DNA from: a virus
Taxonomy: Duplodnaviria; Heunggongvirae; Uroviricota; Caudoviricetes
Direction: 5' to 3' (one strand)
DNA: 31,922 bases
IMG/VR virus record: IMGVR_UViG_2585427777_000013
The notes below the pieces were generated by a model. The model did not search any database and was not told the DNA's origin. It saw nothing but the letters and a program-made list of their open reading frames with translations. Shown one piece after another: positions 7,202-27,338 of this stretch. Both the position numbers and the translations under genes were made by a program. Positions within the stretch are counted from its first letter, which is position 1; every line of letters begins with the position of its first letter.

Positions 7202-8230
7202 TTATTTCACCTGCACCACCACAAACTCATCCGGATCCGGCAGCACCATCAGCGGCGCGGACTGCGTCATGGTGAATTCACAGGACGGATCGCCCACGGT
7301 CAACCAGTGTTTCGGGTAACGGGAAGAAGCCACCACTCCTTCGGACAACGCCTGTGCATCCTTAATGGCTCCATAGCAACGAATCCCCTCTGCTGCCGTA
7401 TTCCCCAGCACCAGCGTGCCCTCCGGCAGATAACGTTTTTCGGTACCGTCCTCTGCCACATAAGACGTTTTCGCTACCACAATGGCCAGATCGCCGTAAT
7501 ACCCCTTGAAGGATACCACTGCGCCCAGATCTTTCACTGCCGTTTCGAGTTGTGAATTTGAACCGCGACGGGTATCCAGTTTTTCGCGGAAAAGCTTAAA
7601 GCCATTCAGCAGACGCCAGACGGTACCGTCCATAATGGCAATATTCACAAGACCACTGGCCTGATCACAGAAAAGGTCGATATCATATGTCGGGTCGAAC
7701 GTGTCACGATCCTGTTTTGACCACTCCTTACCGCTACCCTGTATGATGTTATTCTTCGTCGATCGGCCAAAATCGACTTCAATTTTCTCGAACTGGTCTC
7801 CTTCCATCGTATATTTGCCATACAGCACGGCATTCACCGCCTGCATTTCTTCCACCTGCACAATAGCGTGCTCTTCCTGTTTGAGGTTATCAGTGATGAT
7901 ACGCAGACGACGGTAGGCCGGGTCGTTCAGCTGAGCCGGATCTTCACCGGGAAGGCGTTCAACCGCCTGCTGGTAATTAAATTCGTGTTTGGGCTTGACG
8001 TAGCCCGGACGTAACACGCGGGTTTCACCCCCACGATGACGCAGCACTTTTCCTTCAACGACCGGGGAGACATAGGCCGCCACCGGCGTTTTTCCGGTAA
8101 TTTTGTCCAGCATCACCTCTTCGGTGTGGAAATTCACCGTACGGCGGAAAAACAGCTCCAGAAACAGCGCACGGAATTTCACTTTTTGTTCGGTATAACC
8201 GAGTAACTGGCGGGTCGTAAACAATCCCAT
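7202..8230 (-). CDS. E: Major capsid protein E
   Basis: 342 aa, MGLFTTRQLLGYTEQKVKFRALFLELFF..TVNFHTEEV.LD matches lambda gpE. Confidence 0.92.
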   Translation of the reverse strand: MGLFTTRQLLGYTEQKVKFRALFLELFFRRTVNFHTEEVMLDKITGKTPVAAYVSPVVEGKVLRHRGGETRVLRPGYVKPKHEFNYQQAVERLPGEDPAQLNDPAYRRLRIITDNLKQEEHAIVQVEEMQAVNAVLYGKYTMEGDQFEKIEVDFGRSTKNNIIQGSGKEWSKQDRDTFDPTYDIDLFCDQASGLVNIAIMDGTVWRLLNGFKLFREKLDTRRGSNSQLETAVKDLGAVVSFKGYYGDLAIVVAKTSYVAEDGTEKRYLPEGTLVLGNTAAEGIRCYGAIKDAQALSEGVVASSRYPKHWLTVGDPSCEFTMTQSAPLMVLPDPDEFVVVQVK

Positions 8231-21395: not shown

Positions 21396-21460
21396 CGCCC
21401 GCCACTCACTGCGGGCTTTTTTTTGCCCATAGAAAAGCCCCTCCGGAGAGGGGCTTTTTA
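21396..21460 (+). terminator. Two adjacent terminator-like hairpins; the second is bidirectional
   Basis: GCCCGC-cactcact-GCGGGC followed by TTTTTTTT; then AAAA-GCCCCTC-cgga-GAGGGGC-TTTTT. Confidence 0.5.
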
Positions 21461-21699
21461 CAGTGGTAGTGTAGACAATTTTGCATGGTGCCGGGTGCCT
21501 CCCGGTGAGTTCAGTATCAGCACCTGAACCCGCACAGAAAGGATAAGGGTCGGTGACAAAACACCAGTTGCTGATTGCCCCTCCGCACAGGGGGATTCAC
21601 CATGCCAGTTTCTTTTAACAAACTCCCCGCAAACCAGACAACAGTCAACCGCCTGAATTGTGAGGTATTTAAAAATTTCAACGGGTAACTGATACCCTG

Positions 21700-21861
21700 C
21701 TAATCGCCTGATGCTTTCTTTTTCAGCAACGGGAAAGCAACAACCACCACACCCGCCACCAGCACACCGTCAGCCAGCACTGACATTATCCGGCTGCTGA
21801 AGTCCACCATCACCACCATCACTACCAGAAACAGCAGGAGCGCAACCACAGCCAGACGCAT
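21700..21861 (-). CDS. Possible small hydrophobic peptide (53 aa, two predicted membrane segments)
   Basis: Hand-translated ORF MRLAVVALLLFLVVMVVMVDFSSRIMSVLADGVLVAGVVVVAFPLLKKKASGD starting 9 nt after the TerB-like stop; below the ORF-track size cutoff; weak ribosome-binding site. Confidence 0.3.
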   Translation of the reverse strand: MRLAVVALLLFLVVMVVMVDFSSRIMSVLADGVLVAGVVVVAFPLLKKKASGD

Positions 21862-21869
21862 TTTTACCG

Positions 21870-22301
21870 TCACAGATGATTCTCCAGACGAAGGCCCAGA
21901 ACACCGGCAATCTCTTCCAGCACCTTGCGCTCTTCCGGCTCTATTTCGCCGTCTGCTTCGGCAATGGCCACCGCCACATCCAGCACGTCTTCCGCTTCAC
22001 GCGTATCGTGTTTCACATCCTCGATCTCACGTAACGCCGCTCGACGACCAATTTTAAAGTTCGTATCCAGCTGACCGATAATGGTTGCGCTAATCGCATT
22101 AATTTCTGACGTAAACGCGGACAACGCAGGCTGGTTACGCAAGACCTGCTCGATCTTCGCTTTCTCTGAAGCCTCACATTCACCATCTGCATAGGCCACC
22201 AGATAGGCAGCATTAATAACCGCCTGTGCCAGATCACGTTTCTCAAACTTTTTAATTTCCACTGCCGCTCGGCGGGCTTTTTTACCAAAAATACCAAACA
22301 T
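21870..22301 (-). CDS. TerB-domain protein (tellurite-resistance TerB-like)
   Basis: Two ADG..E motifs (AYADGECEASEKAKIEQ and AEADGEIEPEERKVLEEIAGVLGL) typical of TerB; start at the internal ATG with AAGGA ribosome-binding site. Confidence 0.6.
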   Translation of the reverse strand: MFGIFGKKARRAAVEIKKFEKRDLAQAVINAAYLVAYADGECEASEKAKIEQVLRNQPALSAFTSEINAISATIIGQLDTNFKIGRRAALREIEDVKHDTREAEDVLDVAVAIAEADGEIEPEERKVLEEIAGVLGLRLENHL

Positions 22302-22433
22302 CGTGACGTTCCTTTGGGTGGGTGAGCCAACGCCCGGGAGCGATCTGCCCACAGAGAAAGTCACACTGACCACTCCGTAAGCTCACCCCCGAAAGGCTCT
22401 GTGGTTGATATGCGCCGGGCGTGGCGCGGATAC

Positions 22434-22457
22434 AAAAAAGGCCCGCAAAAGCGAGCC
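22434..22457 (-). terminator. Intrinsic terminator just downstream of the tRNA cluster
   Basis: Minus-strand hairpin GGCTCGC-TTTT-GCGGGCC (one G-U pair) followed by TTTTTTG. Confidence 0.4.
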
Positions 22458-22471
22458 GGGAAAAATAAGTC

Positions 22472-22548
22472 TGGCGCGTTGTACTGGATTCGAACCAGTG
22501 ACCGATTGCTTAGAAGGCAATTGCTCTGTCCGGCTGAGCTAACAACGC
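22472..22548 (-). tRNA. argO: tRNA-Arg, anticodon UCU
   Basis: Hand-folded cloverleaf: acceptor GCGUUGU/ACAACGC, D-arm GCUC..GAGC, anticodon stem AUUGC/GCAAU with loop CUUCUAA, T-arm ACUGG-UUCGAAU-CCAGU, encoded CCA. Confidence 0.85.
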
Positions 22549-22561
22549 AGGATACAGATAA

Positions 22562-22638
22562 TGAACCGCCTTCGGGGACCCGAACTCCGCGCAACCAGCT
22601 TCGAAGGCTGGCGCTCTTTCCTGATGAGCTAATGGCGG
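22562..22638 (-). tRNA. argN: tRNA-like gene, anticodon loop CUUCGAA (UCG, Arg); imperfect, possibly degenerate
   Basis: Perfect D-arm and anticodon arm (CCAGC-CUUCGAA-GCUGG), but an A-A mismatch in the acceptor stem, an A-C mismatch in the T-stem, T-loop UUCGGGU (G at position 58) and UCA instead of CCA at the 3' end. Confidence 0.45.
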
Positions 22639-22645
22639 TATGTGA

Positions 22646-22721
22646 TGGTGGCCCTTGCTGGATTTGAACCAGCGACCTGGCGATTATGAGTCGCTCGCTC
22701 TCACCACTGAGCTAAAGGGCC
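22646..22721 (-). tRNA. ileZ: tRNA with anticodon CAU, most like tRNA-Ile2 (lysidine, reads AUA); Met not excluded
   Basis: Hand-folded cloverleaf closely resembling E. coli ileX: acceptor GGCCCUU/AAGGGCC, anticodon loop CUCAUAA, T-arm GCUGG-UUCAAAU-CCAGC, encoded CCA. Confidence 0.8.
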
Positions 22722-22749
22722 GAGCCAAAAAATAATAATCAGATGAAAA

Positions 22750-23463
22750 TCAATAATCAAGCCCTTGCCTGGATACATATCTGTCTGGCGGGAAGCCATA
22801 ATAGCGGTGAAATACAGAAATAAAGTAGGACCTGCTTGAATAACCGCATTTTTCTGCTATAGCCTGTCCATATCCATGCCGGGAACATAACATATTTACA
22901 GCAACACGCATCCGCTCTTCCAGCAACAAGCGACTGAACATGCCCCCTTCATTTTTCAGTTTTGTCTTTAACAAACTCTCACTCATATGCAACTGTAGAG
23001 CAATCGCACAAAGCGTCCAGCTTGCTGATATATCTGTCTGAATTATCGCCCTGACTTTGGCACTTATGCTGGATAAACATCCACTTAAAAACAATGACAT
23101 CCGTTCATCTGTTTCAAACAGAGACAGGCAGGCCATCATAAGAAACATATCCGTGGCCTCTCCGGAAAATCCCTGGCTGGTAATTAAAGCCGCAGCCAAC
23201 GCAGGATTGTTGGGTTCCAGCAACAGGTAAAGCGGAATGTCAGTCAGACGAGTCCTCGTCAGCTTATGCTGACTTTCCAGATATTGACTTACGACGGATT
23301 CGCTTATATCGACAATTTTAACTTTGCCATAATGCATAAGGAAAAGCTCCCTGATGCATTTGGTGGCCAGAACAACTGAGCCTGGCTTAAGTGACAACGT
23401 ATCCTTTTCAAGAAAAATATTAATTGGGGAGCAAACCATGATAACTGAACAGACAACAGCCAT
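22750..23463 (-). CDS. AraC/XylS-family transcriptional regulator
   Basis: 237 aa; C-terminal AraC-type HTH signature (..LLLEERMRVAVNML..GYGQAIAEKCGYSSRSYFISVFHRYYGFPPDRY); AT-rich; ATG start. Confidence 0.8.
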   Translation of the reverse strand: MAVVCSVIMVCSPINIFLEKDTLSLKPGSVVLATKCIRELFLMHYGKVKIVDISESVVSQYLESQHKLTRTRLTDIPLYLLLEPNNPALAAALITSQGFSGEATDMFLMMACLSLFETDERMSLFLSGCLSSISAKVRAIIQTDISASWTLCAIALQLHMSESLLKTKLKNEGGMFSRLLLEERMRVAVNMLCSRHGYGQAIAEKCGYSSRSYFISVFHRYYGFPPDRYVSRQGLDY

Positions 23464-24047: not shown

Positions 24048-25205
24048 ATGACCACACTCAAAGAACTCAAAGAAGAGCTTGCTCAGATTCAAGATGAAAA
24101 CGCGAAAAATAGAAAAAAAGCTGAAATTGCAGCCTTGGTCACTTCTGCCGACAACGAGATTAGGCTTGCTCAGAGAAATATTGGATACAACGTACGTGAA
24201 TGGACCGTTGAATTAATTGTACAAAAGTATGGCAATAATCTTGAAACTGACAAAAACGAACTTTTTATTCCTGATTATCAACGCGATTACAAATGGGATA
24301 TCAAAACAGCCTCTCGATTCATCGAAAGTATATTATTAGATTTTCCAATCCCGTACCTCTACATCTCCGACGTATTTAATGAAGATCCTGAGTTGGATGG
24401 TCGTGTAGAAATTATTGACGGTTCACAAAGGATTCGCTCAATTTACTACTTTTGGAACAATCAGTTTGAATTGAAAGACTTAAAAGAACTCAAAAGTTTA
24501 GAGGGCTTCAAATTTTCAGATCTTTTGGCTAGCCGCCAGAGGCGATTTTTAAGGGCATCACTAAGATTTATTGAATTGAAAGGTGATGTTGAGGAGCAAC
24601 ATAGAAGAGATTTATTCGAAAGAATAAATTCAGGTGTTAAGAGACTGGAAGCGATGGAGGTTAGACATGGTTCAGATGCGGCCACTTCAATTTTCTATAG
24701 GGATGTTGTGACTCCTTGCTCAACAAATCCACTTTTCGCTAGTCTAGCTCCATTATCAGACCGGAAACGTTCGAATGGCGATCATCGTGAGTTAGTTTTG
24801 AGATTTTTTGCATACTTAAATGATTTAGAAAATTATAAGGGTTATGTCGCTCCTTTTATTGACAATTATCTTAATGTTCAGGCCGAAAGGGTCACACAAC
24901 AAGATGTAGACAAATTTAAACATGATTTTGAAAGCATGCTTGCTTTTGTAGATGCTCATTTCCCTATGGGGTTTAAAAAGACACCAACAAGCAAAACCAC
25001 CCCCCGTGCTAGATACGAAGCCATAGCAGTGGGAACTGCTCTTGCCTTAAAAGCCAATCCACATCTACAGGCTCCGGTTATTCCTGTAGGAGACTGGCTG
25101 TTTGGGGAGGAATTTGAAACCATAGTTACTGCTGATAGTGCCAACAACACCAGCCAACTCAAAAACAGAATATTTTATGTCAAAGATAAATTATTAGGAA
25201 TGTAA
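24048..25205 (+). CDS. DUF262 (ParB/GmrS-like NTPase) domain protein with no recognisable nuclease domain
   Basis: 385 aa; DUF262 hallmarks IPDYQRDYKW and IIDGSQRIRSI, plus ..DLFERINSGVKRLEAMEV..; AAGGAA ribosome-binding site; AT-rich; plus strand, opposite to the phage backbone. Confidence 0.8.
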   Translation: MTTLKELKEELAQIQDENAKNRKKAEIAALVTSADNEIRLAQRNIGYNVREWTVELIVQKYGNNLETDKNELFIPDYQRDYKWDIKTASRFIESILLDFPIPYLYISDVFNEDPELDGRVEIIDGSQRIRSIYYFWNNQFELKDLKELKSLEGFKFSDLLASRQRRFLRASLRFIELKGDVEEQHRRDLFERINSGVKRLEAMEVRHGSDAATSIFYRDVVTPCSTNPLFASLAPLSDRKRSNGDHRELVLRFFAYLNDLENYKGYVAPFIDNYLNVQAERVTQQDVDKFKHDFESMLAFVDAHFPMGFKKTPTSKTTPRARYEAIAVGTALALKANPHLQAPVIPVGDWLFGEEFETIVTADSANNTSQLKNRIFYVKDKLLGM

Positions 25206-25207
25206 CT

Positions 25208-25897
25208 ATGAGTTTGATTGATTTAAGAGATGAATACGAAGAAAGAGCAAGAGATATTATGGAATTGCTTTCTCTTGCGTCATCTTTAGAGGCTCAGACT
25301 CAGCAGTTAGATCAGCAAACGCATAAAGATGAAATAGAATCAAATACCCTTAGGGTTAACATTTTAAAATCATCCGTGCACATGATGCTGTACAATCAGG
25401 TTGAAAACACTGCCAGAGGATGCATTGAGTCAATTTATGACCATTTGCAAGATAATGAAGTAAATTACGCATCACTCAGGGAGAAATTCCAAGTAAATAT
25501 CTTGCACCGTATCATTTCAGATAATGAATCGGGAAAATCTCTTTATCAAAAAATTGGTTCCGATATATCTAAAAGGATCATTTCAGCCTCATTAAACATA
25601 CGTAAAGAATTCAATGGTAATGTTTGCAAGTCTGTATTGCACAAAATAACACAAGCTTACGGAATAACTGTTGCAAACTCACCAGAGTGTAGAAATGGTG
25701 TTGACTTAGATTTACTTAAAGATATCAGAAATGAGCTGGCACATGGAAGTACCAGCTTTTCTAAAAAAGGTCAAATAGACCCTTTAGAAGAAGTCAAATC
25801 GAGGTCAGAAAGAATTGATCTATATTTGCGTTTATTAATCAACTCAACAGAAAATTATATTACCTCTAACGGGTATTTATCCCCTCAACATGTCTGA
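25208..25897 (+). CDS. Predicted HEPN-domain protein (R-x4-H motif), partner of the DUF262 gene
   Basis: 229 aa; C-terminal LKDIRNELAHGSTSF contains R-x4-H; ATG 2 nt after the DUF262 stop with AGGA ribosome-binding site; predicted helical. Confidence 0.6.
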   Translation: MSLIDLRDEYEERARDIMELLSLASSLEAQTQQLDQQTHKDEIESNTLRVNILKSSVHMMLYNQVENTARGCIESIYDHLQDNEVNYASLREKFQVNILHRIISDNESGKSLYQKIGSDISKRIISASLNIRKEFNGNVCKSVLHKITQAYGITVANSPECRNGVDLDLLKDIRNELAHGSTSFSKKGQIDPLEEVKSRSERIDLYLRLLINSTENYITSNGYLSPQHV

Positions 25898-26906
25898 TAA
25901 ATGTTTCCCCTATTATCTGACCAATTATAGGGGGAACAGCATTTCCAATCATTGTCCCCAATTTTTGGAATGAAAAAGGCGTCTCCTTGTCAAGGAATTT
26001 ATAATCCATTGGAAAGGATTGCAAAATCGCAGCTTCACGCAAAGTTATGGCGCGATTTTGCTCAGGATGGCCAAATCGTCCATTTCCATATCCATAACAC
26101 TGGGTAGTTATCGTAGGGCTAGTATCGTCCCAAACCATCCGTCCATAAACGCTTTTATAGGTAGCACCTGAATTCTTTTTATGACAGTCTGCTCTAATTT
26201 CTTCAGGCCAGTCATCCCACGTACCACCAGGTAAAGAATGCATGATTCGTTTAAGATTGATATCCATCAATTTAGGCGAACGATGCAAGGGATCGCTTTC
26301 CAGCTTCTCACCTGCCCCTACTTTTGGCAACCTACCAATAGCATCCTTAACAGTAACTTTACGGCTAACTTTTTTTTGATCAAGGCTGATCGGCCCCAAT
26401 TGGGAACCAATTAGAATTAATCTACGTCTATTTTGAGGTAAGCCATACTCAGAACATCTTACAACGTCGTACCACAAATGATATCCAAGAGTCTTTAATG
26501 CACTAACAAACCCTTCAAAAACCTTATGGTTTCTAAGTTGAGGAACATTCTCCATCGTCACAAGCTCTGGCATTACATCACTTACAAGCCTTTGAAACTC
26601 ATATAACAAACGCCACTTTGTATCGTCTTTACGGCTATTTGGATTACGATACTTGGAAAACGGTTGGCAAGGAGCACATCCAGCAAGCAATCTAATATTT
26701 CCTTCCTTGAACATAGCAGACACATCGCAGGATTGCAGTTCTGTAACTGACTGATTAATGAACTGCGTTAAAGGATTATTGCTCTCAATAGCAAAACGGC
26801 AGGATTCATCAATATCAATACCATGAGAAACCTCAATCCCGGCTTTTTTTAGCCCAAAAGTTAAGCCCCCCGCACCACAAAAAATGTCTACTGCCTGAAT
26901 GTTCAC
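25866..26906 (-). CDS. DNA (cytosine-5)-methyltransferase, no restriction endonuclease gene recognised nearby
   Basis: 346 aa; motif I DIFCGAGG, motif IV GCAPCQPFS, motif VI ENV, motif VIII QNRRR; GTG start with GGAGA ribosome-binding site; 3' end overlaps the HEPN gene 3' end by 32 nt on the opposite strand. Confidence 0.9.
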   Translation of the reverse strand: MNIQAVDIFCGAGGLTFGLKKAGIEVSHGIDIDESCRFAIESNNPLTQFINQSVTELQSCDVSAMFKEGNIRLLAGCAPCQPFSKYRNPNSRKDDTKWRLLYEFQRLVSDVMPELVTMENVPQLRNHKVFEGFVSALKTLGYHLWYDVVRCSEYGLPQNRRRLILIGSQLGPISLDQKKVSRKVTVKDAIGRLPKVGAGEKLESDPLHRSPKLMDINLKRIMHSLPGGTWDDWPEEIRADCHKKNSGATYKSVYGRMVWDDTSPTITTQCYGYGNGRFGHPEQNRAITLREAAILQSFPMDYKFLDKETPFSFQKLGTMIGNAVPPIIGQIIGETFIRHVEGINTR

Positions 26907-26969: not shown

Positions 26970-27338
26970 TTACATAGAACTTAAGTCATTGTAGTAAATG
27001 AAAAATGACAAGCAGCCATCAATAAACCCCATTGCTGTTTGCATCTCTTTCCGTATTGTTCCATCTGAACATTTCCGTTTTTTAGCAATAGCGCGTAATG
27101 AGATACCAATAACAAAGTGAGCAATGATCAACTCATACTCTTCGGGTTTATACTTTCGCAACCGAGCCACACAACCGTCTATCATGATACCTTCGTCATC
27201 ATCACACTGGAGACGTGACTTTTTACCGTGTGGTAAAAGCCCCTTGAAGCCTGCTGCTATCGGCTGCCAGTCCACACCACTGTTATCTGCTGCAGCCCAG
27301 GCCCCCCAACGATCTAAAACTTCGTACATATCACGCAT
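26970..27338 (-). CDS. Q: Late-gene antitermination protein Q (Q82/QuuD-type)
   Basis: 122 aa, MRDMYEVLDRWGAWAA..IAAGFKGL..C.DD...I..GC.ARL.K.. resembles DLP12 QuuD as remembered; lies between replication genes and the late region. Confidence 0.7.
   Translation of the reverse strand: MRDMYEVLDRWGAWAAADNSGVDWQPIAAGFKGLLPHGKKSRLQCDDDEGIMIDGCVARLRKYKPEEYELIIAHFVIGISLRAIAKKRKCSDGTIRKEMQTAMGFIDGCLSFFIYYNDLSSM

Follow-up and report, generated by a model that had tools for sequence, protein, structure and literature searches.

The tRNA cassette and its middle gene

The DNA considered here is IMG/VR virus record IMGVR_UViG_2585427777_000013 (Caudoviricetes), a stretch of 31,922 nucleotides (nt) that is referred to as a whole as the window. 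On its minus strand, positions 22472-22721 hold three tRNA genes: an ileZ-like tRNA-Ile2(CAU), a middle tRNA-Arg(UCG) and an argO-like tRNA-Arg(UCU). Together they are the late-region tRNA cassette of Shiga toxin (Stx)-type lambdoid phages, found here in a toxin-less Escherichia coli prophage. The cassette has been known and annotated since phage 933W was sequenced. Our subject is its middle gene, which we consider likely to be a decaying allele of the phage tRNA gene argN.

On the minus strand ARAGORN calls Arg(tct) at 22472-22548, Arg(tcg) at 22563-22639 and Met/Ile2(cat) at 22646-22721. These are the three tRNAs at the limits expected from the initial annotation of the window, and the middle one is neither scored as canonical nor dismissed as unlike a tRNA. 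Matches to the Rfam tRNA family (RF00005, gathering score 29) reach 70.1 bits for the argO-like gene, 72.5 for the ileZ-like gene and 43.4 for the middle gene; the good cloverleaves that had been folded by hand for a CAU-anticodon, Ile2-like tRNA and for tRNA-Arg(UCU) are thereby recovered. The middle-gene match, with an E value of 3.2e-06 computed for the whole window against 4227 Rfam families, is far above chance.

Numbered in the canonical register, the middle gene has its C1 at 22638 and its A76 at 22562. Its D arm (GCUC/GAGC) and anticodon arm (CCAGC/GCUGG) are flawless, with the loop CUUCGAA and the anticodon UCG at 22604-22602, just as the hand folding had it, and U8, A14, G18-G19, A21, U33 and the 7-nt anticodon loop are all retained. 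The identity set of the E. coli arginyl-tRNA synthetase (ArgRS) comprises A20, C35, G/U36 and A/G73. The D loop, AUCAGGAAA, carries A20, and with C35 and G36 these identity bases are intact; the purine discriminator, a minor determinant, is absent, U73 being found in the window allele and in all other full-length (77-nt) argN alleles examined, intact ones included.

The imperfections listed in the initial annotation are equally real. Two stem mismatches, A6xA67 (22633/22571) and A52xC62 (22586/22576), leave 19 of the 21 stem pairs standard. The T loop reads UUCGGGU, with G58 (22580) where the Rfam consensus has an upper-case A, and G53-C61 is present. The discriminator is followed by UCA (22564-22562) in place of the CCA that sister alleles and both neighbours encode; an encoded 3' CCA is the rule for E. 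coli tRNA genes. The gene passes the RF00005 gathering score but lacks a cloverleaf of standard pairs throughout, A58 in the T loop and an encoded CCA. ARAGORN places it one base earlier, with an 8-base-pair acceptor stem that includes A-1:U73. We rejected this register, which appears only in alleles without CCA, so that the shift is a side effect of C74U and not a better boundary.

Comparison with 933W and other phages

The record of phage 933W (NC_000924) lists, in order, Q, pR', qut, terminators, a 'pT putative tRNA promoter', ileZ, argN, argO, a terminator and stx2AB. Its argN (ST933Wt02) stands in the same gene order as the middle gene of the window, downstream of Q and ahead of the moron and lysis region, and shares with it the anticodon UCG, U73 and A(-1), which supports the ileZ-argN-argO-like naming first proposed for the cluster. 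The 933W gene, CCGCCATTAGCTCATCGGGACAGAGCGCCAGCCTTCGAAGCTGGCTGCGCGGGGTTCGAGTCCTCGATGGCGGTCCA, is flawless: all 21 stem pairs are standard (one G.U), position 58 is A and CCA is encoded. The window copy differs from it by G52A, A58G, U67A and C74U and by four neutral changes (G17A, C20aA, C44U and U63C). With 69 of 77 positions identical, against 76/76 for ileZ and 76/77 for argO, the middle gene has diverged from its 933W counterpart well beyond its neighbours (8/77 differences versus 0/76 and 1/77; Fisher p = 8e-4). The window copy scores 43 bits, compared with 52-59 for the intact alleles that were scored, the 933W allele not being among them. In 933W the cassette is followed by stx2AB, in the window by a TerB/DUF3927 gene pair instead.

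A 401-nt query (the cluster with its flanks) matches 292 phage records, mostly of Stx2 phages. Comparison with argN of sequenced Stx phages, which had been suggested as a check, shows an intact gene in seven of the nine Stx2 phages sampled (933W and six of the eight others). The two lesioned copies belong to Stx2k (G53xA61) and Stx2a_WGPS6 (A51xC63, G3.U70 and U7.G66). The Stx2a_WGPS6 gene (locus L003, 1588-1664) scores 43.0 bits and has its G3.U70 pair in the acceptor stem; we take this pair to be the classic determinant of alanyl-tRNA synthetase, and if the gene is expressed, alanine mischarging at CGA/CGG is conceivable.

Decayed argN copies occur in other lambdoid prophages at the same locus between intact ileZ and argO, and there, as in the window, the middle gene is the one that degenerates. 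They include the 'tRNA-pseudo' of stx2i prophages, the 'tRNA-Lys' of PPompW and Evi, and an 80-nt form. Their lesions are independent of those in the window (loss or replacement of the anticodon arm, a deletion in the D stem together with C33, or C1xA72/C2xA71), and the window allele is less damaged and still detected as a tRNA. The middle genes of PPompW (L002, 1582-1657) and Evi (L136) are annotated as tRNA-Lys(UUU), probably spuriously: they are argN homologues with three anticodon-loop changes, C33 among them. In PPompW a base is also missing from the D stem, and Rfam finds no tRNA there (Evi was not scored). No single form is commoner in the IMG/VR sample than the 80-nt gene, present at L108, L109 and 26 further loci. 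Its acceptor stem and D arm are preserved, its anticodon arm has been swapped for an unrelated …GCAGACGACACGATAACAGGGTTGTTGGTG…, its T loop reads GGCGGGU, and neither Rfam nor ARAGORN matches it.

A search of a limited body of literature on ileZ, argN, argO, the 933W tRNA genes and rare codons found no paper devoted to these genes, no RNA or charging data and no study of argN allele function, and variation in the cassette turned up only as two passing mentions. The gene at the argN locus of stx2i prophages is labelled 'tRNA-pseudo' (PMC13641118), and in four O157:H7 genomes one of the single-nucleotide polymorphisms of the q-stx2 fragment falls in the first tRNA-Arg, besides a 2-base-pair indel in a spacer (PMC2858043).

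Variation across related loci

How much of this damage is peculiar to the window, and how much belongs to the gene family as a whole? When IMG/VR was scanned with the 3' end of ileZ and the 5' start of argO as anchors, 120 loci were obtained; once the window and three further loci had been added, 123 complete cassettes were available for comparison. Diversity is given as pi, the mean pairwise difference per site, the value for ileZ being computed over its unanchored positions. The ileZ gene occurs in 6 variants, with 118 of 123 copies identical and a pi of 0.0025. For argO there are 23 variants and a pi of 0.022, one true compensatory swap is seen in the T stem, and the form found in the window is the majority allele (64/123). 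The middle gene occurs in 50 variants, and its pi of 0.19 equals that of the neighbouring 13-nt spacer (0.19). An intact tRNA-Arg(UCG) is present at 41 loci, 46 carry point lesions and 36 carry indels or an anticodon arm deleted or replaced, which makes 82/123 lesioned copies compared with 21/123 for argO.

Among the distinct single-site states of the middle gene, disruptive ones account for 14/29 transitions (0.49 by chance) and 5/8 transversions (0.75 by chance). No compensatory double change was found in its stem pairs, and all covariation measures equal those of shuffled controls, a null result that is weak evidence either way because divergence is shallow. Rfam scores form a graded series: 52-59 bits for intact alleles, 54 for an allele with G58 only, 43.4 for the window allele and its CCA-bearing parent, 26.4 (below threshold) for a further-decayed type, and no match for the replaced-arm, deleted-arm and 'tRNA-Lys' forms. 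ARAGORN does not call a tRNA in 35 of 122 middle-gene copies. The neighbours score 72.5 bits (ileZ) and 66-73 (argO). To judge from these sequences, the middle-gene family evolves about as neutral sequence would, and the neighbouring ileZ and argO do not.

Constraint differs greatly among the members of the cassette: ileZ hardly varies, argO is mostly kept, and argN is near neutral overall but usually intact in Stx2 phages. This inequality suggests selection on the prophages to supply decoders of AUA and AGA/AGG, and not of CGA/CGG. Among the IMG/VR loci, argN is intact in 7/10 of those where stx2 follows the cassette and in 25/83 of the others (p = 0.03), and pooling in the sampled phages raises the former to 14/19 (p = 0.001); the loci compared are not phylogenetically independent, a point to be set against our interpretation, and these p-values are indicative only. 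The pattern suggests that active phages retain argN and that resident prophages lose it.

Lesions in the middle gene are derived relative to intact homologues, and separate lineages carry different, independent lesions. The direction of change was taken from the contrast of intact and lesioned structure, without an outgroup; when one genome per species was scanned for an outgroup, with the conserved 5' half of this gene as query, three matches came up, all of Escherichia-type sequence. Diversifying selection to escape anticodon nucleases was considered and rejected, given that the changes in the window lineage lie in the T arm, acceptor stem and D loop and that the family-wide spectrum is neutral; one sister allele in that lineage also carries C32U. 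Among the IMG/VR loci, eight copies of argO have CUA at the 3' end where CCA is expected, and four copies stop after the anticodon arm. The CUA copies indicate that loss of the encoded CCA recurs in the cassette.

Lineage and spread of the window allele

A lineage of 27 IMG/VR loci (7 variants) is marked out by A6xA67, A52xC62 and G58 together; G50A and C74U are disruptive changes that appeared later within it. C74U, the most recent change in the window allele, is what separates it from the CCA-bearing form. The 271-nt cluster has matches at 7593 places in 3061 of 5426 complete E. coli genomes. Of the same genomes, 28 hold the exact UCA allele with its spacer, and for another 799 the best match lies 1-4 mismatches from it. 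Among these 799 are the CCA-bearing parents, which differ by one or two mismatches, are much commoner than the UCA allele and occur in UTI89, O157:H7 and O55:H7.

These counts bear directly on another explanation, that the lesions are sequencing or assembly errors in one record. Nothing was found in its favour, and we regard it as refuted by independent identical copies: the same 95-nt allele and spacer stand in those 28 complete RefSeq genomes, O104:H4 strains included, and in IMG/VR contigs. In the non-Stx prophage of O104:H4 strain 2009EL-2071 (L127, 3683-3759) the middle gene is the window allele and argO has two lesions of its own: C61A disrupts the G53-C61 pair, and C67G lies in the acceptor stem. 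By sequence, both arginine tRNAs of this prophage appear to be decaying and ileZ is intact.

Predicted folding

Under energy-model folding, the cloverleaf is the minimum-energy fold of intact argN alleles, and their T-stem pairs have probabilities of 0.5-0.98. The corresponding value is predicted to be at most 0.01 in the window allele and in its CCA parents. In place of the T stem a slipped hairpin is predicted, in which U54-G58 pair with C63-A67 (probability 0.86-0.90, or 0.57 for U54-A67, the closing pair); the acceptor stem is reduced to 5 base pairs, and the cloverleaf is 7.0 kcal/mol less stable than the minimum-energy fold. G58 and A67 each supply one pair to the slipped hairpin, and A52 weakens the competing T stem.

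That three changes converge on one alternative fold raises the question of a repurposed, tRNA-like RNA, in which the slipped hairpin of the 3' half and the kept anticodon stem-loop would serve another role. Such an RNA could, for example, be a decoy for a toxin or anticodon-loop nuclease that attacks tRNA-Arg, an element in the processing or stability of the late transcript, or a source of a small regulatory RNA. Besides the fit of G58, A67 and A52 to the hairpin, the anticodon arm is unchanged in the window lineage, the allele type is frequent, and the region is rich in prophage small RNAs and defence genes. The alternative hairpin, however, has support in no more than one shallow lineage, which offers no covariation to test; other lineages are wrecked in unrelated ways, by replacement or deletion of the anticodon arm or by lesions in the upper acceptor stem, as befits decay and not a shared new function; and the only Rfam family that the middle gene matches is tRNA. 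The changes that complete the hairpin may equally be mutational, through quasi-palindrome correction. We consider repurposing very improbable. As for the predicted hairpin itself, it could stem from chance, from mutational bias such as quasi-palindrome correction, or from selection for a new fold.

A probably decaying argN allele

What would become of the RNA if argN is decaying in the window? By analogy with 933W, the cassette would be transcribed from the promoter just upstream and by Q-antiterminated read-through from the late promoter pR', and the transcript would be cut into tRNAs by the host RNase P, RNase E and 3' exonucleases. The ileZ gene would supply tRNA-Ile2 for AUA and argO would supply tRNA-Arg(UCU) for AGA/AGG. 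The middle gene descends from argN, whose tRNA-Arg(UCG) reads CGA/CGG. In its present form, G52A breaks the T stem and U67A the acceptor stem, A58G removes an almost universal base that pairs with T54 in the T-loop fold, and C74U removes the encoded CCA, the end needed by the synthetase, EF-Tu and the ribosome. G58 and A67 permit the slipped hairpin, which is predicted to replace the T arm and leave an acceptor helix of 5 base pairs, so that the RNA would be expected to misfold. Having lost A58, one T-stem pair, one acceptor pair and C74, it is expected to be misfolded, poorly matured and largely uncharged, and would contribute little or nothing to decoding. On the whole evidence we judge this to be the probable state of the window gene. 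It is a case of ordinary gene decay and not of a new kind of RNA.

The loss of argN is probably tolerated because CGA and CGG are already read by the host tRNA-Arg(ICG) (argQ/V/Y/Z) and tRNA-Arg(CCG) (argX). These share with argN the CGN codon box, a 9-nt D loop with A20, and C35, but their sequences are unrelated to it and their anticodons differ; to our knowledge, E. coli has no native UCG isoacceptor. The decoders of AUA and AGA/AGG are the rarest in E. coli. That ileZ and argO supply the scarcest decoders of the host fits their conservation, just as the host reading of CGA/CGG fits the dispensability of argN. The predicted genes of the window contain, per 1000 codons, 8.3 AGA, 6.2 AGG, 6.9 AUA, 12.1 CGG and 5.4 CGA, all of which we take to be above E. 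coli averages, most strongly AGA and AGG.

Several observations weigh against decay. ARAGORN, Rfam and the NCBI Prokaryotic Genome Annotation Pipeline (PGAP) all still call a tRNA-Arg and not a pseudogene, and identical copies of the window allele are annotated as tRNA-Arg in RefSeq. The D arm, the anticodon arm and the ArgRS-relevant A20, C35 and G36 are undamaged. An A+.C wobble or a lone A.A mismatch is tolerable in some tRNAs, and the E. coli CCA-adding enzyme matures phage T4 tRNAs that lack CCA. The three-lesion allele type is widespread over distant E. coli lineages, which could mean that it is tolerated or even of use; its spread is explained equally well if it hitch-hiked on a prophage that was itself successful. 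Finally, the energy model ignores tertiary contacts and base modifications, and it gives no cloverleaf for the evidently good ileZ and argO; the predicted misfolding is for these reasons supporting evidence only.

Many of the same observations could be read as signs of a working tRNA-Arg(UCG) whose imperfections are tolerated, the UCA being trimmed by 3' exonucleases, CCA rebuilt by the host enzyme, and CGA/CGG read for late genes. The gene does score above the Rfam gathering threshold and is called by two annotation programs with its anticodon arm and identity bases whole; CGG and CGA are, presumably, more frequent in the prophage than in E. coli at large; the CCA-bearing form of the allele is common; and the CUA-ending argO alleles are a parallel for its lost CCA. 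T4 offers a precedent in tRNA genes that, like the window allele, lack an encoded CCA and need trimming and the host CCA-adding enzyme. Those genes are, however, otherwise canonical and known to be matured and used. The loss of C74 in the window is, by contrast, one recent point change, in a gene whose close relatives encode CCA and which already had two stem mismatches and G58. The window allele scores 10-16 bits below intact alleles, its T stem is predicted to be essentially unformed, and more disruptive changes are accumulating in its lineage. Across the family the substitution spectrum is neutral and nothing is compensated, and active Stx2 phages mostly retain a flawless argN. A working tRNA is on this account unlikely, if rather less so than a repurposed one.

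We thus return to a decaying argN allele. The initial annotation had left a choice between a decaying tRNA and one with unusual maturation. The first is favoured by the intact argN of 933W and of most sampled Stx2 phages, the derived lesions, the spacer-like rate and the neutral spectrum; the second is not needed, and the folding predictions speak against a working product. One practical consequence is that a plain 'tRNA-Arg' label on a probably dead copy inflates the counts of tRNA-Arg genes in E. coli genomes rich in lambdoid prophages.

Cassette layout and gene context

The features of the cassette and its surroundings are collected in Table 1. The first gene is, on sequence grounds, of the tRNA-Ile2 type, its CAU anticodon being carried on an Ile2-type body and not a Met one. 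C4:G69 and C5:G68 are present, pairs that we take to be determinants for the lysidine synthetase TilS; tRNA-Ile2 reads AUA once lysidine-modified. Identical copies are labelled tRNA-Ile by PGAP, and the 933W record names the gene ileZ. The promoter-like site upstream occupies the same place as the pT annotated in 933W; promoter-like sites are no commoner in the window than in shuffled sequence, and this one is a consensus match only. Past argO, the terminator-like hairpin itself lies at 22457-22440, where the 933W record has a rho-independent terminator ahead of stx2.

Table 1. Features of the tRNA cassette and of its neighbourhood in the window
Feature	Position	Strand	Basis
Q-like antiterminator	26970..27338	-	
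Opposite-strand two-gene insert	24048..25897	+	
AraC-family regulator, 237 amino acids	22750..23463	-	phrog_1450
Sigma-70-like promoter (TTGATT, 17-nt spacer, TATTAT)	22732..22760	-	consensus scan; ends 10 nt upstream of ileZ
ileZ-like tRNA, CAU anticodon (tRNA-Ile2 type), perfect cloverleaf, CCA encoded	22646..22721	-	ARAGORN, Rfam 72.5 bits
7-nt spacer TCACATA, last base A(-1) able to pair with U73 of the middle gene	22639..22645	-	sequence
Probable degenerate argN allele, tRNA-Arg(UCG)	22562..22638	-	ARAGORN, Rfam 43.4 bits, 933W comparison
13-nt spacer TTATCTGTATCCT, non-coding yardstick (pi 0.19 across loci)	22549..22561	-	sequence
argO-like tRNA-Arg(UCU), AGA/AGG reader, perfect cloverleaf, G73, CCA encoded	22472..22548	-	ARAGORN, Rfam 70.1 bits
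Intrinsic-terminator-like hairpin (GGCTCGC-TTTT-GCGGGCC, then T tract), 14 nt past argO	22430..22457	-	consensus scan
TerB-domain gene and DUF3927 gene	21700..22373	-	phrog_632, phrog_1470
STnc100 small RNA	21425..21634	-	Rfam 145.6 bits

A protein-coding reading of the cluster was rejected: open reading frames at 22361-22594 (minus strand) and 22401-22667 (plus strand) overlap the tRNAs, and the DNA is explained by the three tRNA genes. In the record of phage 1720a-02 (L137, 283-429) an opposite-strand 'hypothetical protein' spans the tRNA cluster and no tRNAs are annotated, probably through an error of annotation.

Read on the minus strand, the window is a lambdoid prophage with no stx gene. 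Its order begins with replication genes, the Q-like antiterminator, a C5 DNA methylase and an opposite-strand DUF262/GmrSD_N and HEPN pair, followed by a phrog_331 gene, the AraC-family gene, the tRNA cassette, the terminator-like hairpin and the TerB and DUF3927 genes. After these come the STnc100 small RNA, a DUF1737/SASA/DUF6645 nanS-p-like esterase, and holin and endolysin genes, then terminase, portal, protease and major head genes, and at last the tape measure and minor tail genes.

The opposite-strand insert between Q and the tRNA cassette, next to 25866-26906 on the minus strand and adjoined by the C5 cytosine methylase, encodes a 385-residue DUF262/GmrSD_N protein (PADLOC NsnA 5.6e-46, PD-T4-2_A 4e-27) and a 229-residue HEPN protein (Pfam MAE_28990/RiboL-PSP) with no PADLOC match. 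By its domains the pair looks like a prophage-borne anti-phage defence pair. The AraC-family gene lies directly upstream of ileZ, with the promoter-like tRNA site within its 3' end; among the IMG/VR loci it accompanies window-type argN at 8/25 and intact argN at 0/35.

The position that stx2AB occupies in Stx phages is taken in the window by the TerB-domain gene ('tellurite resistance') and the DUF3927 gene ('TciB-like'); the moron (accessory-gene) slot is the same, its cargo another. Relatives that share the exact allele, AR_0013 for example, are without the pair. STnc100 lies downstream of the cassette, and in related loci AgvB, an anti-GcvB small RNA, directly adjoins it.

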